Shown: one piece after another, positions 1 to 33,422 of the stretch
How the letters are laid out: each line of letters begins with the position of its first letter
Position numbering within the stretch: the first letter of the stretch is position 1
Virus record (IMG/VR): IMGVR_UViG_3300030430_001289
Coordinates: 1-37,252 of that record
From: a virus
Taxonomy: Duplodnaviria; Caudoviricetes
Length of the DNA: 37,252 nt
Strand: one strand, 5' to 3'
Translations under genes and position numbers: made by a program
The notes under the pieces: model-generated
Databases searched by the model: none
What the model was told of the DNA's origin: nothing
The model's input: the letters and a program-made list of their open reading frames with translations, nothing else

Positions 1-1
1 A

Positions 2-835
2 GAAACTATATCAAGAGAAGCTCCAGAAATAGAGGCTAGAAAACTAGCTTTGTATGACCAAGCCATAGAACTAGCAAGAACACCTATGGAAATACCTGCA
101 TATCAGGTAGCAGGTCCTTCACCTTTAGAATCACAAGCTTTTACAAGAGCAACACAAACTGGCATAGGAGCAGTACCAGTACAAGCTGGAGTTGGTAGCA
201 CAGTAGCCGCAGGGCAAGTGGCTATGCAAGATATTACGCAACAAGGAGGGTTAATAGATTCTTTTATGAACCCTTATCAACGATATGTAATAGATGAAAT
301 AAATAGACAAAGTGAACAAAGAAGAAACCAACAAGCAGCACAAGCAATAGAGAGTGGAGCTTTTGGTGGAGGTAGAGAAGGAGTAGAAAGAGCAGAAGAA
401 GAGAGATTACGATTAGGATTAATAGGCACAGCTCAAGCAGATGCTTTTAAACAAGCAAGAGCTTCAGCTCAAGCACAAAGACAATTTCAAACAGAAGCAC
501 TCCTAAATCAAGCAGGTACTTTTGGAACTTTAGGACAAGCACAACAGTTAATGGCACAAAAGGATATAAGTCAACAGCTATCAGCAGGACAGTTGCAAAG
601 AGACATAGCACAAAAAGGCTTGGAGGCTGCAAGGGCTACAGAAGTTGCAAGACAGGCAGAACCATTTCAAAGAGTAGAATTTGCAAAAGGTATTATGACA
701 GCATTACCAACAACAGCATCTCAAATAACTGCAACAACAGGACCTGGGGCTAATCCTTTGGCACAAGCCGCAGGTGCAGGGATTGGTGCATACGCAGCTT
801 ACAATTTATTAAAACCAATGAATGCAGTAGACTAA
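2..835 (+). CDS. Putative internal virion/DNA-ejection protein, 5'-truncated (Q/A/G-rich)
   Basis: Frame is open from base 2 (ETISREAPEIEARKLALYDQ...), so the TTG at 50 is unlikely to be the true start. Q/A/G-rich helical protein with SGAFGGGR and a glycine-rich hydrophobic C-terminus (AGAGIGAYAAY), as seen in podovirus ejection proteins. Heads a run of large tightly coupled genes. Confidence 0.6.
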   Translation, partial: ETISREAPEIEARKLALYDQAIELARTPMEIPAYQVAGPSPLESQAFTRATQTGIGAVPVQAGVGSTVAAGQVAMQDITQQGGLIDSFMNPYQRYVIDEINRQSEQRRNQQAAQAIESGAFGGGREGVERAEEERLRLGLIGTAQADAFKQARASAQAQRQFQTEALLNQAGTFGTLGQAQQLMAQKDISQQLSAGQLQRDIAQKGLEAARATEVARQAEPFQRVEFAKGIMTALPTTASQITATTGPGANPLAQAAGAGIGAYAAYNLLKPMNAVD

Positions 836-836
836 T

Positions 837-2405
837 ATGGCAACTGATAACAAAAATATTTTTGATTTTGAAAACAGAGAAGAAGGAGAAGAAATACAAT
901 CTGACACAAGAGACCTTAATAATCAAAATGTACCTCCCACGATAACAAGACCTATGGAGTCAGTATCACAACCTATATTTAGTAGAGATGAAAGAGTGGC
1001 TCTTACATTATTGCCTTTGGCTTCTGCTTTGTTGCAAGGTAAAGCACCTGGAGGACAATCTTTACTTAGTAGCACTTTAGCAACTGCAGGACAAGGCTTA
1101 GCTGCAAGTGGTAATGTTGCCTTGCGTATTAAAGAACTAGAAGGGCAAAGAAGAAAAGAAATTGGTACTGGACTTAAAAGTGTTAAATTACAACCGACTG
1201 CTGGTCCAGTAGAAATACAAGGAAAAGTATTTACACCAGACATGGGTAGAGAATTTACTTTAGATGCAGCAACTAGGATGATGTACCCACCAGATACTTT
1301 TACGGAGGTTACAGCAGACAAAACAACACCTAAGTTTGAACCTAAAAAATTTCGTTTTACAGAAGATGTGGAATTACAAGATGGAACTAAATACCAAGCA
1401 GGACAAGAGGTATCATTATTACCAAAAGATTCTTTGTATTTATATAACACTTATGGGGCACAGGCTTTAAAGGAAATTAAAGATGTTGACCCACCTTCAT
1501 CTTTAAAACCAATAAATTTTATGGTAGATATTTTTCAAAAAGGTAGCGATGATATAAAAAATAATAGAAGGTTTTCATTTGGACAAGATGAGATAGCTAA
1601 AGCATTCTTATTAGCTGAAGCTGAATCTAAACCAAAAAGAGTAACAATTAAATTACCTGGTGGTGTTGAAGAACAAAGAATAGTAAGAGACTTAGATTAT
1701 GTGAAAAATTTAAAAAATATATATGGAGATGAAGTCTTTGAGCAATTATGGACTTATGCCAATTTAGGTGAAAATTTTTATGCTGATTTAGGAAATGATG
1801 TAGTAAAATCAGAAACAGCTATAGCAAAATTAGAAAGACCTATAGACTACGATGCTCTTAGAACTGGTAAAAGTAGTGATATTGTAATAGCAAGAAGAGT
1901 AAACTTACCTGATGCTGCAAAGAAAACTTTAGCTTCTGCAAGTTCAGTTATTCAAGACTTAGCTAATGTGAGAAGAAAACTCTTTAAAGATGGTGTATTA
2001 CAAAGAGATATTTTATTAACACCAAATAAAGTTAAAGTATTAAAATCAGGTGCTGTATCTTATGCAAGAAGTATGCAAAGAGCAGTAGAAACTTTATTAA
2101 GACAAAGGTCAGGTGCAGCCATAACAAAACAAGAATTTGACAGATATCAAAATTTATATGTTCCTACAACTCTAGACTCAGAAGAAGTAGTCAAACAAAA
2201 ATTATTAGCTATGGAGAGAGAATTTGGAACAATTATTAAACTTATAAGAAGTGATAAACCAGTTCAAATTTATGATAGTGTTAATGACATTAAAATCAAT
2301 GGTATGACTCTAGAAGAGCAATGGGAAAAGGGCATATTTAAAGATAACAAAACTATAAAGACTAATGAGGCAGATAATGAAACTGGAGGAGCTAGTATAA
2401 ACTAA
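837..2405 (+). CDS. Putative internal virion protein (522 aa)
   Basis: Long ORF coupled to both neighbours. N-terminal A/G/L-rich segment (LASALLQGKAPGG...AGQGLAASG) and RQRSGAAITKQEFDRY segment. Function inferred from position. Confidence 0.5.
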   Translation: MATDNKNIFDFENREEGEEIQSDTRDLNNQNVPPTITRPMESVSQPIFSRDERVALTLLPLASALLQGKAPGGQSLLSSTLATAGQGLAASGNVALRIKELEGQRRKEIGTGLKSVKLQPTAGPVEIQGKVFTPDMGREFTLDAATRMMYPPDTFTEVTADKTTPKFEPKKFRFTEDVELQDGTKYQAGQEVSLLPKDSLYLYNTYGAQALKEIKDVDPPSSLKPINFMVDIFQKGSDDIKNNRRFSFGQDEIAKAFLLAEAESKPKRVTIKLPGGVEEQRIVRDLDYVKNLKNIYGDEVFEQLWTYANLGENFYADLGNDVVKSETAIAKLERPIDYDALRTGKSSDIVIARRVNLPDAAKKTLASASSVIQDLANVRRKLFKDGVLQRDILLTPNKVKVLKSGAVSYARSMQRAVETLLRQRSGAAITKQEFDRYQNLYVPTTLDSEEVVKQKLLAMEREFGTIIKLIRSDKPVQIYDSVNDIKINGMTLEEQWEKGIFKDNKTIKTNEADNETGGASIN

Positions 2406-4882
2406 TGACAGTATTATCACAAAACAGATTAGCAATTAGTCCAATTCTAATATTAAAAGATGGAACTATAGCTCCACCAGGTACTCCAGAAAATGATGAA
2501 AATGTTGCAACTGTTATACCAAAGATTGATTTGTCTATGGGTGCATCAGCATCTTTAAGAGCTAAAGTTGGTAACAGAGATAAACCAGAAGAAAGACTTG
2601 CTATTATTAAACAATTCTATCCTGATGCTATACCTACATCAAAAACAATTAATATACAGACAGAAGACCCAAATGACTCAAATAAAAAAATTACAAAAAA
2701 AGTTACTATTGGCGATTATTTAGATATTGGTAATGATAATTTTATTTATACCGATATGGTAGATGGAAAAGAAGTGCAGAAGGTATATAATGAAAAAGGT
2801 TTAAGTTTAGGAGATGTAGCATCTTTTGGTAGAACTATAGCAGAAAATGTTGGTGGAACTTTAGCTGGAACTGCTGTTACTGTTTTAGGACAAGCAGGAC
2901 CTCAAGCACTTACCCCAGAGGAAATATTTACTGTACCAACAGCTATAGCTCTTGGTTCTGAAGCAGGAGGTCAGTTATATGATAGAGCTGTAGATATGTT
3001 AATAACAACTGCTGGTAAAGAGTTGGTTAGTCGAGGAAAGATGTCTAGTCAAATTATTAAAATGTTAAGTAACATAGGTATTGAAGCTTCTGGTATAAGG
3101 TCTGTGGATGCCTTAGTTGAAGCAGGTAGAAAAGTTACACCAAAAATAGGTCAACTATTGTTGGGTATAGGAAAACAATCAAAAGAAAAAGCAAAAGAGC
3201 TAACTAAAAAAGCTGCAAGTTTAGGATTAAAAATACCAACAATAGGTTTAGCTACACAAAGTCCTACTGTTCAGTTCATAGAAAAAGTTATGATTAATTC
3301 ACCTTTAGGAGTAGGTGCATTTACAAAAAAAGTAAAAGAATTTAATGACGGAGTAAGTAATGCAGTTAAAATAATAGGCAATAAATATGGTAGTGGAAAT
3401 GTAGAAAAAGATATTATTGGGAAAAGACTACTAGGAGGTGTTCAAGATTATGCTGAAAAAGTTCGCAAAGAGACAGATAGATTGTATGGTAAATTAGATG
3501 AAGTTTTTCCTAACAGAGTTAACACACCTAATTTACAAATTGTACAAGATGAATTAAAAGATGATTTAGCTGAAGGAGGTATCAAATCAGCTATTACCCC
3601 AGTTTTAAACATTGTGTCAGATTTACAAAAAGCATCAAAAAATAAAGAAGGGTTAACAATTCTTACTTTACATAAAAGAAGAAGTGAATTGTTGAGTATG
3701 TTAAGAAATACAAAATCTGAAGGCATGAATAATGAAGTTATTAGAACATCTATTAAAAAAGCTATTGATGCGATTGAAAGTGATATGAAGTCTGGTATTG
3801 AAGCAGTAGGAAGTAAAAAAGCATTAAAAGCATATGAAGATGCTAGTAAGTATGTTAGAGAAACAAAGGGTGAATTAAAAGGTTCATTAACTGATATATT
3901 AGATTTTGGAGATAGTGAAAAATTTGACAGAATTTTTAATTTAGCAATAGGACCTTCAGCACTATCTAGTGGTGGAGAAAAAATAAAAAAAATAGTAAAA
4001 AATTTAAAACCTGAAGATAAAAATGAATTAGCCTCTTCTATACTGTTTAGACTAGGAGTTAAAAATCCTGATGGCACTTTATTAGAAGAGGGATTTAGTC
4101 CAAGCACATTTATTACTAATTGGGGTAAAATATCCAAATCTGCAAAAGATGAAATATTTGGAAATACTGGTTTACGAAAAAATATAGATGATTTATCAGA
4201 CATATTAAAAAGTTATTTAAGTGGACAAAAATACGAAAACTTTTCTAGAACTGGTAATTCTATAGGCACACTTGCCTTAGTATATCCTTTATTTAGTGGT
4301 CTTGTTGGAGCTACTGGAGCTGCCATTGGAGGCACTACTGCTGGTGTAGTGGGTGGAGGAGGATTGGCTACAATGTCTTTCTCTCCATATTTAATGAGTA
4401 AATTATTAACTAGCGAAACTTTTATGAAATCTATTATTGATGGTGGAAAAGAAGTTTTTAGAAAACCTAATTTATTAGGAACATGGTCAGGTCGATTATT
4501 AGATGATATGAGAAAAGAGGCTGAGAGAACTGGAGATTTAAGTTTAATTGATGCAACAGAAGTATACTTACACCAACTTCTTTTTGAACAACCAGTAGAT
4601 GAAGATGAAACATCTGAAATAAAAGAATTAGAAGAGACACAAACAATGGCTCAAGCAGATGTACCCAAAATAACACCACAGCAACAGATAGGTAATATAC
4701 AACCTACAAGACCCAATATAAATATCACACCACCCACGAACCAAGGAACACCTGCAATGGTTGCATCAGCTCCAGTATCTCCTCCTAGTGGTGGAGGTAT
4801 AGCTTCTATTAATAGAGAACAGTTTGGTGGTTTATTTCCTCAAGATAATTTAGGTCAACTCATAGCTAATAGGAAAACATAG
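2405..4882 (+). CDS. Putative DNA-ejection/transfer protein (825 aa)
   Basis: Two glycine/alanine-rich hydrophobic stretches (GGTLAGTAVTVLG; GLVGATGAAIGGTTAGVVGGGGL) flank a long helical region, the architecture of podovirus ejection proteins. Confidence 0.55.
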   Translation: MTVLSQNRLAISPILILKDGTIAPPGTPENDENVATVIPKIDLSMGASASLRAKVGNRDKPEERLAIIKQFYPDAIPTSKTINIQTEDPNDSNKKITKKVTIGDYLDIGNDNFIYTDMVDGKEVQKVYNEKGLSLGDVASFGRTIAENVGGTLAGTAVTVLGQAGPQALTPEEIFTVPTAIALGSEAGGQLYDRAVDMLITTAGKELVSRGKMSSQIIKMLSNIGIEASGIRSVDALVEAGRKVTPKIGQLLLGIGKQSKEKAKELTKKAASLGLKIPTIGLATQSPTVQFIEKVMINSPLGVGAFTKKVKEFNDGVSNAVKIIGNKYGSGNVEKDIIGKRLLGGVQDYAEKVRKETDRLYGKLDEVFPNRVNTPNLQIVQDELKDDLAEGGIKSAITPVLNIVSDLQKASKNKEGLTILTLHKRRSELLSMLRNTKSEGMNNEVIRTSIKKAIDAIESDMKSGIEAVGSKKALKAYEDASKYVRETKGELKGSLTDILDFGDSEKFDRIFNLAIGPSALSSGGEKIKKIVKNLKPEDKNELASSILFRLGVKNPDGTLLEEGFSPSTFITNWGKISKSAKDEIFGNTGLRKNIDDLSDILKSYLSGQKYENFSRTGNSIGTLALVYPLFSGLVGATGAAIGGTTAGVVGGGGLATMSFSPYLMSKLLTSETFMKSIIDGGKEVFRKPNLLGTWSGRLLDDMRKEAERTGDLSLIDATEVYLHQLLFEQPVDEDETSEIKELEETQTMAQADVPKITPQQQIGNIQPTRPNINITPPTNQGTPAMVASAPVSPPSGGGIASINREQFGGLFPQDNLGQLIANRKT

Positions 4883-9446: not shown

Positions 9447-9830
9447 ATGGTAGGTAGAATGAAAACTAAAGGTATGCGAAAAATGGCAAAAGGTGGCACT
9501 AAAATGATGAAGGCTCAAGGTGGTAGAATGGCATCAAAAGGTGGCACTAAAATGATGAAGGCTCGTGGTGGTAAAATGGCAAAAGGCTATGCAAAAGGTG
9601 GCACTAAAATGATGAAAGCCAGAGTAGGTAGAATGATGCCAGATAGACCTATAGCTAGTGGTGCTATGAGAAAAGGAACTATGGCTAGACCTATGGGAGC
9701 TATGAAAGGTAAGATGGCTAAAGGTTATGCAAAAGGTGGTGTGAAAAAAATGCAACTTGGTGGAGGAATTACAGTTGCAAAACTTCGTTCTGAGGCTAAA
9801 AAAAGAGGAATGAAATTAGTTAAAGCTTAG
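9447..9830 (+). CDS. Highly basic K/M/G-rich repeat protein (KGG repeats), putative DNA-binding internal protein
   Basis: Repeats MAKGG/TKMMKAxGG/GYAKGG; almost no acidic residues; clear RBS. Confidence 0.75.
   Translation: MVGRMKTKGMRKMAKGGTKMMKAQGGRMASKGGTKMMKARGGKMAKGYAKGGTKMMKARVGRMMPDRPIASGAMRKGTMARPMGAMKGKMAKGYAKGGVKKMQLGGGITVAKLRSEAKKRGMKLVKA
9487..9616 (+). repeat. Three identical 25-bp direct repeats CAAAAGGTGGCACTAAAATGATGAA
   Basis: Copies at 9487-9511, 9535-9559 and 9592-9616, encoding KGGTKMMK. Confidence 0.9.
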
Positions 9831-12426: not shown

Positions 12427-13329
12427 TTAAGCCACCTTCTTATTTTCCCCCTTGTTTTGTAAGTTGTCTAAAAATTCTACTGCTCTTGAAGATTTATTAA
12501 TAGCTTTAATTACTTGTTCTGGTTTATTCTGTAACTGCTCTATCCAACTATTAATATACTTTGCGTGGTCAGCTCTTACAGTTTGAGAAATACCTAATAT
12601 GGCACTCAATATTGCTGAACCAGTTTCTGCAACTAACTCTTCAATCGCATAAGCATCGGAACCAAACTGACCAGAAAAATCTCTATCTAATCTATTTTTA
12701 TTTCCAGTCCAATGAACCAGCTCGTGTAACAAAGTACCATAAAATTTTTCTGTGCTATGAAAATCTTTTTTATTTGGCATTTGTATATAGTCAGAGCTTG
12801 GTGAATAATAAGCTCTATCACCACCATATTGTATAACTGCTTCTGTGTTTGCGATGTATTTATTAGCTTCTGAATTATTTTTTGCTTTGTTAGGAGACTT
12901 AGACTTTTTTATCTCATACCCTTCAACTTGATTTGCATTAAAAACTGCGTGAGGTTTTAAATACCATATTTGTTTTTTTCTAGGGTTGCCATTCTCATCA
13001 AGTTTCTTTTCGTCTTCTACTGTAAACTTATCGTTGTAAAATATGTAAGTAGCTTTTTCTTTTGCCTTTACATTATACCCCATTGATTTCCACATATTAT
13101 ATGTCCCCCACTCATTATTGTCATACTTCTTGATGTCTCTTTCAATAAGTAAGTTGAAAACATTAAAACCAGAATAAGACTTTTTGGTTTTAGCATTTAC
13201 TGGTAATCCAAATTCACTAGAGTTCCATACTTCACTTTTTTTCCAATTAGAACCCTCAGTCTTTAGTAACTCTATTAATCTATTAGCTACCTTGTTTATT
13301 ATTTCTTTTCTATTATTTTTTTTAGTCAT
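12427..13329 (-). CDS. ardC: ArdC-family antirestriction/ssDNA-binding protein with zincin (HExxH) domain
   Basis: N-terminal ArdC-like domain (P-N-x-T-x-K-x-Y-S-G-F-N, WGTYNMWKSMG-x-x-V, VFNANQVEG). C-terminal RAYYSPSSDYIQMP...LLHELVHWTG...YAIEELVAE metallopeptidase-like domain. Confidence 0.88.
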   Translation of the reverse strand: MTKKNNRKEIINKVANRLIELLKTEGSNWKKSEVWNSSEFGLPVNAKTKKSYSGFNVFNLLIERDIKKYDNNEWGTYNMWKSMGYNVKAKEKATYIFYNDKFTVEDEKKLDENGNPRKKQIWYLKPHAVFNANQVEGYEIKKSKSPNKAKNNSEANKYIANTEAVIQYGGDRAYYSPSSDYIQMPNKKDFHSTEKFYGTLLHELVHWTGNKNRLDRDFSGQFGSDAYAIEELVAETGSAILSAILGISQTVRADHAKYINSWIEQLQNKPEQVIKAINKSSRAVEFLDNLQNKGENKKVA

Positions 13330-22354: not shown

Positions 22355-22521
22355 GTATTACTAAATCTAAAGACTCAAGTTACTATTATTTACAAAGAGC
22401 TAAAAATTTAGCTAATTGCACTAATAGAGAGTGGGACAAGTTGTCTAAAGTAAAAAGAGATTATTTTGTTGAGAAGGCTGAAAACGATTATGAACATGAA
22501 AGTGTTACAAATAAAAAATGA
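22351..22521 (+). CDS. Small basic hypothetical protein (56 aa, MSITKSKDSSYYYLQRAK...)
   Basis: ATGA overlap with the upstream gene; open for 56 codons; fills the gap before the mom-like gene. Not in the track. Confidence 0.55.
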   Translation: MSITKSKDSSYYYLQRAKNLANCTNREWDKLSKVKRDYFVEKAENDYEHESVTNKK

Positions 22522-23143
22522 AGAAACTGAACCTTGGCTATTACGAAAGCATTATGCCAAAAGAATGCCTCATATAAGTTTTGCTTTTGGATTGTATCGA
22601 CAAAATGATTTAGTAGGAGTTATAACTTATGGCAATCCAGCTAGTGATGCCTTGTGTCGTGGTGTGTGTGGCGAAGAGTATAAACACATGGTCATAGAGT
22701 TGAACAGACTATGTTTACAAGATAATAAAAAAAACGAAGCATCCATATTGGTTTCTCACTCTTTAAAACTTTTACCAAAACCAAAAATTGTTATTAGCTA
22801 TGCCGACACATCAAAAAATCATATTGGATATATTTATCAAGCAACAAACTTTATGTACACAGGTCTTAGTGCAAAAAGAACAGAATGGAGAATAATTGGT
22901 AGTAACAAACATAGTCGAACAATAACAGCCCAAGCTTCATTAAATGAAAGGAAAACTAATACAGAAAAATATGAGTTAGTTGACCGACCAAGAAAACACA
23001 GATACATATTCTTGGTTGCTAATAAAAAAATGAAAAAAGAAATTATCAAAAAAATGAACTATAAACCTGAGCCATATCCTAAAGGAGATAACAAAAATTA
23101 TGACTCAGGTGGTGATGTATCTAAACAGTTATTATTGTTGTAG
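22490..23143 (+). CDS. mom: Mom-family (GNAT-fold) DNA adenine modification enzyme
   Basis: KHY...FGL...GVITYG-x-P...IELNRL...NEAS...ISYAD...HIGYIYQATNF-x-YTG, the signature of phage Mu Mom homologs. ATG 22490 preferred over TTG 22466. Confidence 0.8.
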   Translation: MNMKVLQIKNEETEPWLLRKHYAKRMPHISFAFGLYRQNDLVGVITYGNPASDALCRGVCGEEYKHMVIELNRLCLQDNKKNEASILVSHSLKLLPKPKIVISYADTSKNHIGYIYQATNFMYTGLSAKRTEWRIIGSNKHSRTITAQASLNERKTNTEKYELVDRPRKHRYIFLVANKKMKKEIIKKMNYKPEPYPKGDNKNYDSGGDVSKQLLLL

Positions 23144-23423: not shown

Positions 23424-23887
23424 TGTATTTACCTTCACCTTCAGTTCTTAAAGTTTTAGGTTACAAAGTAAGCAAAGAAATATTATATCAAGATAGAAGA
23501 CCAGAAGAAAATTTATACTGTTATGTTTTAATAAATTCTATAGAAGATGTGATGTTAACACATAGCGATAGAAAATCCTCTTTGCAAAAATGTGAAGCTC
23601 ATAATTGGTTGATTAGTAATTCGGAAGATTTTAAAAAAGTTTGTGAGTGGGCTTTGTTAGACCCTGAATTAGTATTATATAGTTACAAGTTATCTATAAA
23701 AAACAAAATGATAAAATTTACAGCAAGACAAGTGGGTTGGAAAAGATATTATAATTTTTATTTAAAAGTGAAAACTTTTAACATAAAAGAAAAAAGAAAA
23801 CATAAAGGTCATTTAAAAAAGTTACGAAATTCTGTTTTTAATTCTAGCACTAACTTTATCTCTACAATTTTTTTGTCAGTTATTTAA
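23423..23887 (+). CDS. Hypothetical protein (154 aa)
   Basis: TAATG coupling; EAHNWL...DFKKVCEWALLDP segment; basic C-terminus. Confidence 0.65.
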   Translation: MYLPSPSVLKVLGYKVSKEILYQDRRPEENLYCYVLINSIEDVMLTHSDRKSSLQKCEAHNWLISNSEDFKKVCEWALLDPELVLYSYKLSIKNKMIKFTARQVGWKRYYNFYLKVKTFNIKEKRKHKGHLKKLRNSVFNSSTNFISTIFLSVI

Positions 23888-24287
23888 AGTATTCAAAGTT
23901 ATAACTTGTTCTATTAGTCGATACCAAAGTAGCACCATTTTTAGTATGAAACTTATATGCCATATCTGTTTTAGGAGATAGTGTTACAAATCTTTTTGTA
24001 TTTAAATTAGGTAACAAATAATTTAAAATTAATCTACCAAATCCTTTTTCATAACTCCACAATGTATAAAAGATTGTAAACTCTTTTGTATCTTCTTTTG
24101 TATACTTAATTAATTGTTTTATTGTTTTTGGTAACTTTATAGTATTAGCAGTACATACTACCGATTTGTTTGGTATCGTATAAATTCTTCTGCCCTCTGT
24201 TGTTCTAAATTTAAAATCTAAATCTCTTCTTACTGGGTCATCAGCAATAGATACCTCATACTCATTGTTAACTATTTTTAAATTCAT
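23880..24287 (-). CDS. GNAT-like acetyltransferase
   Basis: FYTLWSYEKGFGRLIL (acetyl-CoA loop-like) and MAYKFHTKNG (motif B-like); coupled to terS. Confidence 0.55.
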   Translation of the reverse strand: MNLKIVNNEYEVSIADDPVRRDLDFKFRTTEGRRIYTIPNKSVVCTANTIKLPKTIKQLIKYTKEDTKEFTIFYTLWSYEKGFGRLILNYLLPNLNTKRFVTLSPKTDMAYKFHTKNGATLVSTNRTSYNFEYFK

Positions 24288-24799
24288 TATTCTTTTTCTA
24301 TTTTATCAGGAGTAACATCTATGATATTTTTTGCTTCGCCAATCTTAGACTCTAGTTCTTCTAATCTTTTTTCTAATTGGTCTCTACTCATTCCCTCTAA
24401 AGTAGAATGTGTAATTTGTTTGTGGTCTATATACATTCCAGCTAATTGACCAGAACGATACTCAGCATTAATAGATGCAGTAAATTGTCCTTTCTTTGCA
24501 GATTGCTCTCTTAAATCATCAAGTATCTTATATCTTCTTAGCTTGTCTTTCTCATACTTCTCTCTTTCAATCATTAATTGTTTCTCTAAGTATCTGCAAA
24601 TATGTGGGTTTAAATCTGGGTTCGTTAACTTCGATGCAAGGACAAAGGCACTTTCTCTAGTCTTTGGTGTATAACCAGCTTTGTAGAGTGCATCAGTTTT
24701 TGTGATTTTACCCCAATCCTCGACTAATATGTTAACAAACTTTTTTTGATTGTCTGTTAAGTCTTTTGTCGTTCTCATTATCTTTTTTCTTTGAGCCAT
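24287..24799 (-). CDS. Terminase small subunit-like protein
   Basis: LTDNQKKFV...TDALYKAGYT...ASKLTNP...I-x-x-YL HTH pattern of TerS, followed by an oligomerisation helix and a GQLAGMY tail. Confidence 0.72.
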   Translation of the reverse strand: MAQRKKIMRTTKDLTDNQKKFVNILVEDWGKITKTDALYKAGYTPKTRESAFVLASKLTNPDLNPHICRYLEKQLMIEREKYEKDKLRRYKILDDLREQSAKKGQFTASINAEYRSGQLAGMYIDHKQITHSTLEGMSRDQLEKRLEELESKIGEAKNIIDVTPDKIEKE

Positions 24800-24892
24800 A
24801 ACGAATCAATATTTATCATAAAATACCATAATGCACTAATATAGAAAATATTTTTTAAAAAAAAGTTGCTAGAAAAACACTCAAGTTTTTAT

Positions 24893-24984
24893 ATTTTTCC
24901 CAAAAAGTGGGAATTTTTCCCAAAACTTTCCTAGTTTGTTTTCTTGCTAACCCTATGTTTTCTGGGGTTTTTCCCAGTTTCCTA
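24893..24984. repeat. Cluster of short direct and inverted TTTCCCA/TTTCCTA repeats
   Basis: ATTTTTCCCAAAA at 24893-24905 and 24913-24925; TTTCCTA at 24927-24933 and 24978-24984; inverted pairs TTCCCA/TGGGAA (24897-24913) and CTGGG/CCCAG (24962-24977). Confidence 0.7.
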
Positions 24985-25069
24985 AAAAAAAAGGCGATTT
25001 TACACTATATATTTTTTTTTTTAGTTGTAAGGAAAGACATTATAGAAAAACAGAAATTTAATAAAATAT

Positions 25070-25118
25070 TTGATATCACTAATTAGATGTGATATATTTT
25101 ACTTATAAACAAAGGAGA
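25070..25118 (+). promoter_or_regulatory. Strong sigma70 early promoter with overlapping palindrome and RBS
   Basis: TTGATA (25070-25075), 17 bp spacer, extended TG-n-TATATT (25090-25098); ATATCAC-N9-GTGATAT inverted repeat (25073-25095); AAAGGAG RBS. Confidence 0.7.
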
Positions 25119-25125
25119 AAAAAAA

Positions 25126-25742: not shown

Positions 25743-25784
25743 AGCATTTATTGTAGCCCTCTTCGGAGGGTTACTACAAGTGCT
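25743..25784 (+). other. Long RNA hairpin with C(UUCG)G tetraloop, no U-tract
   Basis: AGCAT-tta-TTGTAG-CCCTC-TTCG-GAGGG-tta-CTACAA-GTGCT; intergenic within the early operon. Confidence 0.7.
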
Positions 25785-25820
25785 ACAACACTTGGTTTTA
25801 TATTAACAAAGGAGAAATAA

Positions 25821-25982
25821 ATGAACATAGATATGAAATTACTAAAGAATACAATAGATGATATAAAAAGTGATGATAGTTGGGTGAAGGATAATAGCCA
25901 TTCTCGTACAGAGTTTAAGGGTGTGCGTCTTGGACTCAATTTATTAGTCCATCGCTTAGAAGAAAAAATGAAGGAGAAATAA
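25821..25982 (+). CDS. Small early hypothetical protein (53 aa, MNIDMKLLKNTIDDIK...)
   Basis: AAAGGAGAAATAAATG start context; stop abuts next ATG. Not in the track. Confidence 0.7.
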   Translation: MNIDMKLLKNTIDDIKSDDSWVKDNSHSRTEFKGVRLGLNLLVHRLEEKMKEK

Positions 25983-26192
25983 ATGAGCAGGTATAAAAGT
26001 TTCTTAATGGATAGAGAGCAAGAGCTGGATGGAGAAATATACATCCTTAAAAAGAAAGAATACAAAGTGGCAAGATTATTTAAAAAGTTAATGCCTTCAA
26101 CTTGGTCATATAACTATTGGATGAGTGTCGGAGTTGAGCTTAACAAGAGCATAAAAAGACTACAAAGGGAGAAGACAAATATTAGTTATTGA
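25983..26192 (+). CDS. Small early hypothetical protein (69 aa)
   Basis: AAGGAGAAATAAATG start context. Confidence 0.7.
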   Translation: MSRYKSFLMDREQELDGEIYILKKKEYKVARLFKKLMPSTWSYNYWMSVGVELNKSIKRLQREKTNISY

Positions 26193-26310
26193 TATTCCCT
26201 AAATTATAGTTTAGGGTGTTGTTAGTCTCTACCTATACTAAAAATTAGAGACTATCCTTTGTTGGTAGCCATAGGTTTTTTAGTCATTGCTTATGGCTAT
26301 CGTTATAGTT

Positions 26311-26730
26311 ATGGAAAGAAATCTTTGGCATCAACTTAACCAGATACAAAAACATAAACAAAATTATAAATCTTGGAAACTTACTCGCATAGAAACCTCA
26401 ACGATTAATGGGGTTCCTGATGTGCATTGTTTAATATCTGGATTTTCTTTTTGGTTAGAATTAAAAGCTAATGAGGATAAGAATTATGGTCTATCAAAAT
26501 ATCAAATCATTTGGCAACTTGATTACATAGCTAGAAAAGGTTTTGTTTACAACTTAGTTTTCGCCCCCTCGCAGAGGCTACTCAAACTTGTAGCCATAAA
26601 TCCAGCTTCATTTAGCTTCAATCATACAGATAAGACACATAAATCTGGTTTCATGGTGCTTGATACAATTAAATATACACAAGATAATTTATGTAAAATA
26701 ATTAAGTCGATTTTGATTCGAAATAGTTAG
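26311..26730 (+). CDS. PD-(D/E)xK nuclease (VRR-NUC/Holliday junction resolvase-like)
   Basis: MERNLW...RIET...GVPDV...FWLELKA...LSKYQIIW; ATG 26311 preferred over TTG 26287. Confidence 0.8.
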   Translation: MERNLWHQLNQIQKHKQNYKSWKLTRIETSTINGVPDVHCLISGFSFWLELKANEDKNYGLSKYQIIWQLDYIARKGFVYNLVFAPSQRLLKLVAINPASFSFNHTDKTHKSGFMVLDTIKYTQDNLCKIIKSILIRNS

Positions 26731-26756
26731 TTCGCATAACACACATTATGTTAAAT
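26729..26756 (+). other. XerC/XerD dif-like recombination site
   Basis: AGTTCGCATAA-CACACA-TTATGTTAAAT versus E. coli dif GGTGCGCATAA-TGTATA-TTATGTTAAAT: XerD arm 11/11, XerC arm 9/11, correct 6-bp spacer; intergenic. Confidence 0.85.
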
Positions 26757-26951
26757 AAAGCCATTTGTTCCTTGTCTGTTCTCCTTGGTTTGTAAAAGAA
26801 GGCTCAGACTTTTTTTGGAAATGTAAAGTATTTTTTTTTATTTTTTTTAGGGTCGGCAAAATTTATGTTACTGTGCGTATGGCTATAGGTTGAGTTGAAT
26901 ACATATATATAAGAAGTAAACATCTAAATTTTTTTATGTTATAAATTAATT

Positions 26952-28424
26952 ATGAACATTGAAAATTTAACCACAGATAGATTACGATTACAAGTAGAAA
27001 AATTACACATAGAACATATCAAATTATGCCAAGATAATTTTTTATATTTTGTTCAAGAGATGTGGCAAGATTTTATTTGCAGAAAAGAAAAAGAAAAAAG
27101 CAAATGGGGTCATCATCAAATTATAGCTAACGAGTTTTCAAACATAGCTTCAGAAAGAAAAGGAAGGCTCATAATAAATATGCCACCAAGACATACAAAA
27201 TCAGAATTTGCATCTGTATATTTTCCAGCTTGGATAATTGGTAAGTTTCCAAAATTAAAAATTATGCAAGTATCACACAACACAGAATTAGCAGTACGAT
27301 TTGGAAGTAAGGTTCGAAACATAATTGATTCTTCAGAGTACAAACAAATTTTTGGAGATGTAAAACTTCGTGAGGACTCCAAAGCAAAAGGTCGTTGGGA
27401 AACTAATCAAGGTGGTGAATACTATGCCGCAGGGGTGGGTGCTTCTATTACTGGTCGTGGTGCAGATTTATTAATTATAGATGACCCACATACGGAACAA
27501 GATTCTATGTCCGACTTAGCAATGGAAAGAGCATATGAGTGGTACACATCAGGACCACGACAAAGACTACAACCAGGTGGTTCAATTTTATTGGTAATGA
27601 CAAGATGGGCTGAGGATGATTTAACTGGAAGATTATTGAAAGCTCAAAAAGAACCTAAAGCAGATAAATGGAAAACTATTTCTTTTCCAGCCATACTACC
27701 TGATGGAGTTCCAGTATGGTCTGAGTATTGGGAGATAGAAGAGTTAGAAAAAATAAAAGCATCTTTGCCAATAAGAAACTGGTCAGCCCAATATATGCAA
27801 GAGCCGACTTCAGAAGAAGGTGCGATTATAAAAAGAGAGTGGTGGCAACCTTGGAAAAAAGAAACGATGCCAAATTTAATTCATATAATACAAAGTTACG
27901 ATACTGCGTTTAGTAAAAAAGAAACAGCAGATTATTCTGCTATTACAACTTGGGGAGTTTTTTATCCAGATGAAGTTACACCAAATATAATTTTATTAGA
28001 TGCTGTGAGAGGTAAATATGATTTTCCTGAATTGAAAGCTGTGGCGATGGACAATTATAAATATTGGGAAGCTGAAAGTGTTATTATAGAACAAAAAGCT
28101 AGTGGCGAACCACTAACGCAAGAATTTAGAAGAATGGGAATACCAGTAATACCTTTTGTGCCAAGTAAAGGCAATGATAAGTTTTCTAGAGTAAATGCAG
28201 TTGCTCCTATTTTTGAAAGTGGTGCAGTTTGGTTTCCTTACGGAGAAAATTTTGCTGACGAAGTAATTGAAGAATGTGCATCTTTTCCACATGGGGCTCA
28301 CGATGATTATGTTGATAGTATGACACAAGCTTTGTTGAGATATAGACAAGGCAACTTTGTTGAACTATACTCAGATTATGTGGACAACGAAGACTTGCCT
28401 CCTAAAGATTATATTTATTACTGA
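26952..28424 (+). CDS. terL: Terminase large subunit
   Basis: Walker A IINMPPRHTKS, ITGRGADLLIIDDP, MTRW, nuclease SYDTA...DYSA...IEQKASG...HDDYVDSMTQ. Confidence 0.95.
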   Translation: MNIENLTTDRLRLQVEKLHIEHIKLCQDNFLYFVQEMWQDFICRKEKEKSKWGHHQIIANEFSNIASERKGRLIINMPPRHTKSEFASVYFPAWIIGKFPKLKIMQVSHNTELAVRFGSKVRNIIDSSEYKQIFGDVKLREDSKAKGRWETNQGGEYYAAGVGASITGRGADLLIIDDPHTEQDSMSDLAMERAYEWYTSGPRQRLQPGGSILLVMTRWAEDDLTGRLLKAQKEPKADKWKTISFPAILPDGVPVWSEYWEIEELEKIKASLPIRNWSAQYMQEPTSEEGAIIKREWWQPWKKETMPNLIHIIQSYDTAFSKKETADYSAITTWGVFYPDEVTPNIILLDAVRGKYDFPELKAVAMDNYKYWEAESVIIEQKASGEPLTQEFRRMGIPVIPFVPSKGNDKFSRVNAVAPIFESGAVWFPYGENFADEVIEECASFPHGAHDDYVDSMTQALLRYRQGNFVELYSDYVDNEDLPPKDYIYY

Positions 28425-31697: not shown

Positions 31698-31854
31698 AGC
31701 ATTACCACCGAAACGAGGTCCTAACCCTCAAGGTTTAAAAAAAGGAGCATTAAATAGTGGTTGTCCTTATCGTGAAAATGGTGTAAAAGGTAGTGATATC
31801 AAAGGAGTAAAACCTATTCAAGTTAAGGGAAAAAAATTTATCGGTGTTAAATGA
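31684..31854 (+). CDS. Small basic K/G/P-rich protein (56 aa, MRRIKALPPKRGPNPQGLKKG...KGKKFIGVK)
   Basis: Overlaps the portal end and the next start (ATGA). Not in the track. Confidence 0.65.
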   Translation: MRRIKALPPKRGPNPQGLKKGALNSGCPYRENGVKGSDIKGVKPIQVKGKKFIGVK

Positions 31855-32447
31855 TAGATGGTGATTCTAGCGAATACAATTTCATTAGTGAAGAAATAGA
31901 AAAATTAAATTTAGAAGATGTAGTTCTTACTTGCGAAATAGGGTTACGAAGAGGACTTGGTTCTAAAATAATTATGGATGCTGTAAAGAAAAAACAAGTA
32001 CCACATTATAGACATTTAGCAGTCGACCCATACGGAAACTTAGAATACAAACATTACGATAATGCCTTACCTTGTAAAAAAGATTACACAGATAATATGA
32101 AGGTTGAAACATTATGTGAGTTGGTCAAATATAAAGAGTTTAGTTTTTTCGAGTTTCCAGACACATACTTTTTTGAAACTATGGAACGAGGTTATCCATT
32201 TTACATAGATAGTAAAATAGCATTACTAGGATTATATTCTGTTGTGCATTTAGATGGTCCTCACACGACAGAGGCAGTAGAAAATGAAATAAATTTTTTT
32301 ATGAAACGAATGGCTGATGAAAGTATAATTATTATTGACGATTACAACGAAATAAAGGTAAAATCTATAGAATGGTCTTTACAAAAAGTAGGTTTTCAAG
32401 AAATACGAAAAGGCAGTAGAAAATTAATTTTTAAAAGGAGTATATAA
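31851..32447 (+). CDS. Class I SAM-dependent methyltransferase (Methyltransf_24-like)
   Basis: EIGLRRGLGS, AVDPY, VHLDGPH, IIIDD motifs. Confidence 0.75.
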   Translation: MIDGDSSEYNFISEEIEKLNLEDVVLTCEIGLRRGLGSKIIMDAVKKKQVPHYRHLAVDPYGNLEYKHYDNALPCKKDYTDNMKVETLCELVKYKEFSFFEFPDTYFFETMERGYPFYIDSKIALLGLYSVVHLDGPHTTEAVENEINFFMKRMADESIIIIDDYNEIKVKSIEWSLQKVGFQEIRKGSRKLIFKRSI

Positions 32448-32836
32448 TGGCACTAACAGCACTCATAGGACCTGCTACAAAACTAATAGGAAAATTTGTA
32501 AGAGACAAAGATAAGGCAGCACAACTAAGCCATGAAATATCTACTATGGCAGAAAAACACGCACAAGAATTAGCTCTTGCTCAAATAAAATTAAATACAG
32601 AAGAAGCAAAAGGTAATTGGTTTCAATCCTCGTGGAGACCTCTTGTTGGTTGGATAGCAGCAACATCTTTAGGAGTAAACTATCTCTTATCTCCTATATG
32701 TGCTGGGTTTGGTATTACAATACCACAAGCTGATATGTCGGTCATGATGCCCTTGCTACTAGGCTTACTGGGACTCGGAGGTTTGCGTTCTTTTGACAAG
32801 TTAAAGAAAACTGATACTAAAATTGTAAAAAAGTAG
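32447..32836 (+). CDS. Holin of the GTA 3-TM holin family
   Basis: EEAKGNWFQSSWRPLVGW and LLGLLGLGGLRSFDK signature; hydrophobic segments. Confidence 0.75.
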   Translation: MALTALIGPATKLIGKFVRDKDKAAQLSHEISTMAEKHAQELALAQIKLNTEEAKGNWFQSSWRPLVGWIAATSLGVNYLLSPICAGFGITIPQADMSVMMPLLLGLLGLGGLRSFDKLKKTDTKIVKK

Positions 32837-32837
32837 T

Positions 32838-33422
32838 GTGATACCTTTCCCAGATAAAAAATATAATATTATATACGCAGACCCACCTTGGAGCTTTGAT
32901 ACATATTCAGAGAAAGGCAAAGATAAAAGTGCAGACAATCATTATGAGTGTCAAGATTTAGAGTGGATAAAAAATTTGCCAATAAAGAATATAGCTGACG
33001 ATAATTGTATTTTGTTTATGTGGGTTACTTTTCCTACATTACAACAAAGCTTTGAAGTTTTATCTAGTTGGGGTTTTAAGTATTCGACTTGTGGTTTTGT
33101 GTGGGTAAAGTCTAACAAAACATATAACAAAAATCAGTTAAGCTTTGTAAAAGAAGAAAAGTTTGATGCTTTCTGGGGTTTAGGATATTGGACAAGGGCT
33201 AATGCAGAACTATGTTTGATTGCTAAAAAAGGCTCAATAGAAAGACAATCACGAGGAGTACATCAAATAGTGTACGAGCCAATACAAGAACACAGTAGAA
33301 AACCAGATTGTGTAAAAGACAAAATTATACAACTTTGTGGAGACTTACCAAGAATAGAATTGTTTGCTAGAAGAGAAACACAAGGCTGGGATGTATGGGG
33401 TAATGAAGTATGTATGACATAG
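32838..33422 (+). CDS. MT-A70 family N6-adenine methyltransferase
   Basis: IYADPPW, LFMWVT, WGF-x-Y, GLGYWTR-x-NAE, EHSRKP, IELFAR, GWDVWGNE. Confidence 0.9.
   Translation: MIPFPDKKYNIIYADPPWSFDTYSEKGKDKSADNHYECQDLEWIKNLPIKNIADDNCILFMWVTFPTLQQSFEVLSSWGFKYSTCGFVWVKSNKTYNKNQLSFVKEEKFDAFWGLGYWTRANAELCLIAKKGSIERQSRGVHQIVYEPIQEHSRKPDCVKDKIIQLCGDLPRIELFARRETQGWDVWGNEVCMT

Follow-up and report, generated by a model that had tools for sequence, protein, structure and literature searches.

A dif-type site beside the terminase genes of an integrase-less marine tailed phage: a possible role for host XerCD in joining the genome ends

A 28-bp dif-type recombination site lies just upstream of the large terminase gene of a marine tailed phage, represented here by a 37,252-nucleotide stretch of DNA (the window), and is conserved in one clade of its relatives. 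We favour, with a probability of roughly 0.55, a reading in which host XerCD recombines two copies of this site, one from each end of the phage DNA, thereby closing the genome or joining it to another. The first-pass annotation of this DNA had proposed integration at the host dif or resolution of genome dimers; joining of ends is a use that it did not name, and the evidence leans towards it.

The 28-mer, AGTTCGCATAA-CACACA-TTATGTTAAAT, occupies positions 26729-26756 on the plus strand and is real, beyond chance: it is the sole match in the window at up to three mismatches, the mean in 100 shuffled sequences being 0.01. It shows the 28-bp dif-type layout of two 11-bp arms and a 6-bp centre, with an inner dyad CATAA/TTATG. 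Scored against the E. coli dif sequence given in PMC2731167, the XerD arm agrees at 11/11 and the XerC arm at 9/11 positions, exactly as had been claimed, and the arm bases are identical (22/22) to real chromosomal dif sites located at GC-skew maxima. The site had also been described as intergenic, which holds for all but its first two bases; these fall within the stop codon of a nuclease gene (26728-26730), and the remainder lies 195 bp before terL. Host XerC and XerD are predicted to bind the site. The site and the genes nearest to it are:

24287..24799, minus strand: small terminase subunit (terS)
26311..26730, plus strand: PD-(D/E)XK nuclease with a predicted VRR-NUC/Hjc Holliday-junction-resolvase fold, adjoining the site
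26729..26739, plus strand: XerC-type arm AGTTCGCATAA, its first two bases common to the nuclease stop codon
26740..26745, plus strand: central hexamer CACACA, of the clade form C-NNNN-A
26746..26756, plus strand: XerD-type arm TTATGTTAAAT, variable at its last base only (T/A)
26952..28424, plus strand: large terminase subunit (terL), 73.8% identical to that of HTVC023P

Relatives were picked by terL alone, as the best 80 of 592 viral loci. Seventeen of the 80 share at least 90% terL identity and 15 of these have the site with at most one change; the remaining two begin just 173 and 316 bp before terL. All close relatives with enough upstream DNA therefore keep the 28-mer (15/15 informative loci), as the first-pass annotation had proposed to check. 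The other 63 loci, at 69-87% terL identity and some holding little upstream DNA, gave no match better than five mismatches. A quick maximum-likelihood terL tree was built from 71 rows after two short rows had been removed and identical ones collapsed; in it the 14 site carriers and the two loci that begin just before terL form one branch, with an SH-aLRT support of 100. The XerC arm is identical in 14 of the 15 terL-selected relatives, one having G at position 1; across these loci each arm varies at a single outer base, and the centre takes six forms, all C-NNNN-A. Seven centre variants occur in the clade overall, never CATATA, TATATA or TGTATA, with positions 1 and 6 invariant and positions 2-5 variable. 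Among 28 haplotypes pooled from all searches, 10/11 columns of each arm are invariant, a figure that is partly circular as the haplotypes were pattern-selected, compared with 2/6 in the centre, 3/21 in the left flank and 14/45 in the right flank. As judged from the alignment, the arms are thus almost invariant and the centre and flanks freer, as in a dif-type site and as had been anticipated for arms and flanks. In a check for a recombination hot spot, the four-gamete share was 0.34-0.44 across the site and 0.25-0.38 alongside.

These patterns bear on whether this is an Xer site at all. The 28-mer lies in a conserved non-coding module before terL, where an operator, promoter or terminase-binding element resembling dif by chance might be expected. 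However, every arm base equals that of real chromosomal dif, the same arms recur in unrelated phages, 63 relatives that likewise need packaging signals lack the site, and promoter, terminator and Rfam scans gave no signal above chance. We regard such a chance resemblance as highly improbable.

The window (32% GC) encodes PolA, primase, helicases, terS, terL, portal, GroES and capsid, and its replication and head genes stand in the order common to HTVC023P-type phages; the capsid shares 82% identity with that of HTVC023P-type pelagiphages. No end repeat is present in the window, which covers about 37 of the 58-59.5 kb of an HTVC023P-type marine phage genome. Phages of this type are described as lytic and as the most abundant in marine viromes (bioRxiv 2019.12.14.876532). 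Because the window is a partial genome, the absence of a recombinase from its 37 kb, which had been pointed out earlier, did not in itself show an integrase-less phage. That conclusion comes instead from the complete relatives, where an integrase elsewhere in the genome was sought and PF00589, PF00239 and PF07508 matched in 0/4. Three of these are circular assemblies of 58.4-59.5 kb with one site each, and no FtsK-gamma domain was found in three complete genomes. A PHROGs scan of 126 ORFs from three genomes (74 listed for G003 and 52 picked from G001 and G002, leaving out ORFs below 70 aa or cut by a border) recognised no integrase, repressor, partition or plasmid replication gene; the sole partition-like match was a weak ParB C-terminal one (E 7e-5) in an 839-aa protein. 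The KOPS motif GGGNAGGG is absent from both strands of the window and of three complete genomes, a weak test in DNA of 32% GC. With the site conserved in one clade and four complete relatives free of recombinase genes, the central claim, that an integrase-less tailed phage carries a conserved dif-type site, is supported.

One site per genome, with arms intact and centre free, is also what a plasmid xrs-like function would show, in which host XerCD resolves multimers or unlinks replicating circles, wherever the ends lie. This would be useful in theta replication or in a carrier state in starved hosts. Plasmid sites with the same arms and C-first centres exist, and 28-bp FtsK-dependent xrs on large plasmids are described in bioRxiv 2024.04.05.588136. 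The 126 ORFs and the lack of KOPS argue against this function, which also leaves unexplained the position beside terminase genes and inside terminal repeats (below), and we consider it unlikely.

The proposed integration at host dif without an integrase could not be substantiated. Pattern scans returned 197 loci (60, 19 and 118), 55 of them in the clade, many rows being the same contigs twice. In 54/55 clade loci the nuclease gene lies left of the site and a phage motif right of it, the other locus ending 4 bp after the site; with a relaxed pattern (free centre and outer XerD arm) the nuclease was on the left in 30/30. The suggested search for phage-host junctions thus gave 0 hybrids in 55 clade loci within a pattern-bound search, and no clade genes were present beside the candidate host dif at 26 and 15 loci of two host groups (one of 27 in the first group was unmatched by the script). 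The metagenome scan covered 44/64 parts and required the arms and a C...A centre; being partial and pattern-bound, it would miss rare or differently built junctions. A loose end at 26759 in run X8 proved to be another phage family with the same arms, not host DNA. Furthermore, 0/28 haplotypes have the centre of a candidate host dif (CATATA, TATATA or TGTATA), and recombination requires closely related centres (PMC11705084). In the known attP sites of IMEX, the elements that exploit XerCD, the centre of the host dif or its XerC half is preserved and the XerD arm is often poor (PMC5357621); the phage site is the opposite, with good arms and a drifting centre. Since neither a phage-host junction nor a centre equal to a candidate host dif was found, integration at host dif is unlikely.

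An IMEX-type attP, at which an XerC-first exchange would integrate the phage at the host dif, could still draw on the lack of an integrase, on arms and a C...A frame that match the dif of TMED62-like alphaproteobacteria (CATATA), and on the 11/28 haplotypes one base away from CATATA. Beyond the missing junctions and host centres, bases 2-3 on the XerC side vary, no lysogeny genes were recognised and the group is described as lytic (bioRxiv 2019.12.14.876532). IMEX (CTXphi, VGJphi, TLCphi, the gonococcal island, tailless Vibrio prophages) resemble this phage in having a dif-like site and no integrase of their own, but they are filamentous, tailless or islands and are integrated at dif, often with a poor XerD arm, whereas here the arms are intact and the centre drifts; our incomplete, pattern-bound search found no integrated form with hybrid sites. 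The subtypes compare with it as follows. TLC/GGI-type elements have a host-like centre and a degenerate XerD arm, and here the XerD arm is intact and 28/28 centres differ. The VGJ type has a 29-bp attP, compared with 28 bp here, and the CAT start of 10/28 haplotypes fits CATATA while the rest do not. The CTX type uses single-stranded DNA with two inverted sites about 90 nt apart, unlike the one site of this tailed dsDNA phage. We give an attP of this kind little chance. The unusual centre had been thought to favour self-recombination by the phage, and this idea is supported.

In unrelated cultured phages, sites of the same kind lie inside the terminal repeat where the ends are recorded. A blastn query of 91 bp around the site, run against cultured phages, matched lytic Wifcevirus coliphages, GAP31 and PSTCR3. 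In Wifcevirus WFH, AGTTCGCATAA-CAGGTA-TTACGTTAAAT occurs at 3337 and 70919, within an exact 3,701-bp terminal repeat, given as about 3.7 kb in PMC6563267. WFH, Ro157lw and Mansfield all carry AGTTCGCATAA-NAGGTA-TTACGTTAAAT within the terminal repeat, 337 bp short of its right end; the repeat is 3,533 bp long in Ro157lw and spans 1-3673 by PhageTerm in Mansfield, where it also holds terS. The site region was present in 29/29 matching Wifcevirus-type records, RefSeq duplicates included, and twice in 7 of them. In Klebsiella phage DP the site is inside a 514-bp terminal repeat (L486:274-301). Wifcevirus (WFH, WFC, Bas98-101, Mansfield) and Vequintavirinae (GAP31, DP) are myoviruses of enterobacteria, unrelated to the window phage. 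The Wifcevirus sites located are:

L478:3337-3364, L479 (MK373776) and L483-L485: dif-type sites, unannotated in the records, as in the Vequintavirinae records viewed

The fixed 337-bp distance in three Wifcevirus records would also suit binding without crossover, in which bound XerCD shields an end from nucleases or translocases, or copies of the site titrate XerCD/FtsK and stall division. Intact arms at a 6-bp spacing, as seen here, suffice for binding, and FtsK halts at XerCD-dif according to PMC2800217. However, the invariant centre positions 1 and 6 lie beside the cleavage points and fit catalysis better, and binding alone appears quite unlikely to be the function.

Among 19 non-clade loci, hand-picked from 30 prepared, 7/19 have a terminase gene no more than about 0.8 kb from the site, and in 12/19 none was recognised within 3 kb. 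Unrelated tailed-phage contigs with the same arms about 0.8 kb or less from terS or terL are L005, L013, L040, L053, L058, L146 and L228; in L001, L003 and L038 the site is beside a primase gene instead. Dif-type sites were also seen in the rV5-like phage GAP31 (L481:3000-3027), whose region matches 70 records, and just after terL in Providencia phage PSTCR3 (L482:3995-4022). A second unrelated marine phage family of about 40% GC, with genes for a baseplate lysozyme and a 2OG-Fe(II) oxygenase, has the same arms around the centre CACATA, followed by TTGACA (L157:545-572, L173). The CACATA centre occurs in 26/118 metagenome matches, one of them a clade member.

For the window phage itself, read depth gives a hint of terminal redundancy at the site, and only a hint, because it comes from assembled contigs of two studies. 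The site-bearing contig was the deepest of eight long contigs listed in 4/4 virome runs. Its depth exceeded the median of the other contigs by factors of 1.82, 1.54, 1.31 and 1.48, which would correspond to about 1070, 900, 360 (run X4) and 1160 doubled bases; depth is one figure per assembled contig and calls for cautious reading, and the four runs may sample one population. In run X4 the depth is at baseline from 26862 (contig 26862-27056). In runs X3 and X5 the site contig continues without a break beyond 25756; this is compatible with a physical end but not with a second strain of equal abundance. To the right of the site, three contigs stop after 67-82 bp. The features bearing on the ends, and the conserved elements around the site, are:

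24800..25125: A/T-tract non-coding region, from terS to a small-gene block, matched in 33-35 of 37 clade loci
25756..26891: raised-depth stretch with approximate boundaries that includes the site, a candidate terminal redundancy of about 1 kb
26715..26719, plus strand: GATTC, kept in 28/28 haplotypes despite two nuclease-gene reading frames there
26764..26781, plus strand: conserved direct repeat TWTGTTC-N4-TNYGTWC with an 11-bp period, 7 bp past the XerD arm
26829..26860, plus strand: T-tracts and an (A/G)GGTC motif, conserved in the alignment; possibly where the terminase cuts or where the repeated stretch has its right end

In the favoured reading, joining of the ends by host XerCD, the site likely falls within a stretch of about 1 kb repeated at both ends of the packaged DNA. 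XerCD recombination between the end copies would turn the incoming genome into a circle, or yield genomes joined head to tail. Completion of the reaction might fall to FtsK, to replication, or to the adjacent resolvase-like nuclease cutting a Holliday junction made by XerC. As both partners would come from one genome, the centre would be free to drift, and the drift would also keep it unlike the host dif. Several observations speak against end-joining. Run X4 implies only about 350 doubled bases, and another strain present in the sample and carrying the same stretch could raise the depth. Recombination at a site of 28 bp ordinarily depends on FtsK or on accessory sequences; here neither KOPS nor FtsK-gamma was found in the three complete genomes, and the XerC side is coding. 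Long homologous repeats can also be joined by ordinary recombination, with no need of Xer, and most relatives get by with no such site. The literature searched gave no account of how HTVC023P-type phages package their DNA or where its ends lie.

That the nuclease finishes a junction made by XerC without FtsK is speculation, since the gene is also found in relatives without the site. Its start at 26311 is taken from relatives. The PD-ExK core is invariant, the profile matches VRR-NUC 4QBO (E 0.005), and a structural model (pLDDT 89) resembles the Hjc and RecU resolvases (best E 4e-4). Stand-alone VRR-NUC proteins cleave four-way junctions (PMC4103454) and XerC alone can form junctions without FtsK (PMC9226527). 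The terS gene is on the minus strand in 8/8 site-bearing loci and on the plus strand in 27/27 sampled loci without the site; in the window, terS and the next gene (23880-24799) are inverted as a pair relative to close site-less relatives. This inversion fits as a clade marker in 35 loci but was rejected, since HTVC027P and 023Pt_psg01 have terS on the minus strand and no site.

The arms had been expected to help identify the host, but they fit several. Pelagibacter ubique is without dif and Xer (PMC2731167). HTVC023P-type pelagiphages resemble the window phage in gene order and proteins (terL 74%, capsid 82%), but HTVC023P and HTVC027P, which infect Xer-less Pelagibacter, show no site in the terL regions scanned (38.7 of 60.9 kb and 13 kb, respectively). 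Matches to the arms with a C...A centre were found in 16 of 185,579 genomes, three of which are low-GC alphaproteobacterial MAGs, including TMED62, with the centre CATATA. This CATATA site, where an MBL-hydrolase gene and mazG meet, is a real chromosomal dif: in the TMED62-like genome G007 the GC-skew maximum is about 600 bp away and KOPS converge on the site. Such genomes encode XerC-, XerD- and FtsK-like proteins, the Xer scores falling below the NCBIfam equivalog cut-offs; CATATA is the centre of 7/8 such sites in the order, and the TMED62-like dif was the only exact match among 401 alphaproteobacteria sampled. One of its arms forms the last codons and stop of the MBL hydrolase (L240:1667-1693, L292, G007:C1:311559-311585) and the other the start of mazG, which is replaced by a GGDEF/phosphatase cluster in L246 and L300.

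A TMED62-like host read from the site alone was favoured at first, and this reading was weakened by recurrence of the arms elsewhere. An order of small 32%-GC genomes that includes G847, and is probably SAR86, has a dif in 150/201 genomes, with the centre TATATA; exact arms occur in at least ten of its genomes among the rows listed, and the dif of G847 is at the skew maximum. The same arms are present in 19/401 sampled gammaproteobacteria, all with a T-first centre, and the XerC arm, next to a C-first centre, is found in E. coli phages as well. An Xer-positive host is likely, with TMED62-like alphaproteobacteria or the SAR86-like order as candidates. Within these orders we found no phage of the clade, only distant relatives (terL at 61% in 1/46 genomes, capsid in 0/46, and capsid at 68-85% in 2/266), none with the site. 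Markov-chain composition separated the hosts by less than 0.01 per base, differences driven by GC, and no phage proteins were in common with 380 kb and 341 kb of two candidate hosts. HTVC023P-like contigs binned into bacterial genomes (G1077:C4, several contigs of G918, and G034:C6), one a circle of 53 kb, carry no dif-type site.

Among known systems, P1 comes close. P1 circularises through loxP copies in its terminal redundancy, and loxP, like the present site, is a tyrosine-recombinase site placed for phage self-recombination; P1 differs in encoding its recombinase, Cre, and in being a temperate plasmid prophage, whereas this phage has no recombinase and belongs to a lytic group. For a site in a terminal redundancy there is here the depth hint in 4/4 runs, with repeats seen for unrelated cultured phages. 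A role of Cre/loxP in multimer resolution is described in PMC10999674. Plasmid xrs (cer/psi, the FtsK-dependent xrs of large plasmids, Acinetobacter pdif) share the use of host XerCD, good arms and a centre unlike that of the host; unlike them, the phage has no plasmid functions and linear virion DNA, and on its XerC side, where cer/psi have an accessory sequence of about 200 bp, there is coding DNA, the variable 3' end of a gene. The converging KOPS of FtsK-dependent xrs on large replicons were not detected, again a weak test at 32% GC. Chromosomal dif with XerCD and FtsK (PMC2731167) has the same 28-bp 11-6-11 form, with arms identical in TMED62-like and some SAR86-like members; the phage site is set apart by its place beside terminase genes, a variable centre unlike that of any candidate host, and the absence of KOPS. 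By analogy, the phage site would on balance seem to work like P1 loxP and plasmid xrs while being a member of neither, and it fails the tests for IMEX.

A wider proposal, which we advance tentatively and with less confidence than in end-joining itself, is that many lytic tailed phages (this ocean branch, Wifcevirus, rV5-like) have independently put a host dif in their terminal repeat, so that XerCD could close or concatemerise the genome with neither RecA nor a recombinase of the phage's own; acquiring the site would mark a move to an Xer host, and the nuclease could finish the junction without FtsK. Hijacking of Xer is known for integration (IMEX) and plasmid stability, and a lytic-cycle use at genome ends would, if true, add a third role and make the phages depend on their hosts in a new way, bearing on how terminally repeated genomes close after entry. 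The literature searched, with subscription journals mostly outside it and papers partly available, did not describe dif sites at genome ends in lytic tailed phages; the word 'Xer' is absent from the main text of two Wifcevirus papers, whose supplements may annotate sites. Cultured site-bearing Wifcevirus phages offer a laboratory model in E. coli K-12. The window contributes a test across a whole clade of an abundant marine group, a contrast with the phages of Xer-less Pelagibacter, a junction search with a negative outcome and the depth hint, and its site suggests that this HTVC023P-type branch infects an Xer-positive host rather than Pelagibacter ubique.

Other features of the window were also noted. 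No tRNA genes were found. The virion gene block closes with a 127-aa Met/Lys/Gly/Ala-rich protein with MAKGG-type repeats (9447-9830), which has no family match. GATC is fully absent from the window and G001 (observed/expected 0.0) and stands at 0.5-0.8 in G002 and G003; its absence suggests avoidance of a host restriction system. The window has genes for an ArdC-like anti-restriction protein, a Mom-like modification protein and methyltransferases (12427-13329, 22466-23143 and 31851-33422). Anti-restriction and modification genes are swapped among relatives, G001 and G003 having C5 methyltransferase and thymidylate-synthase-like genes.
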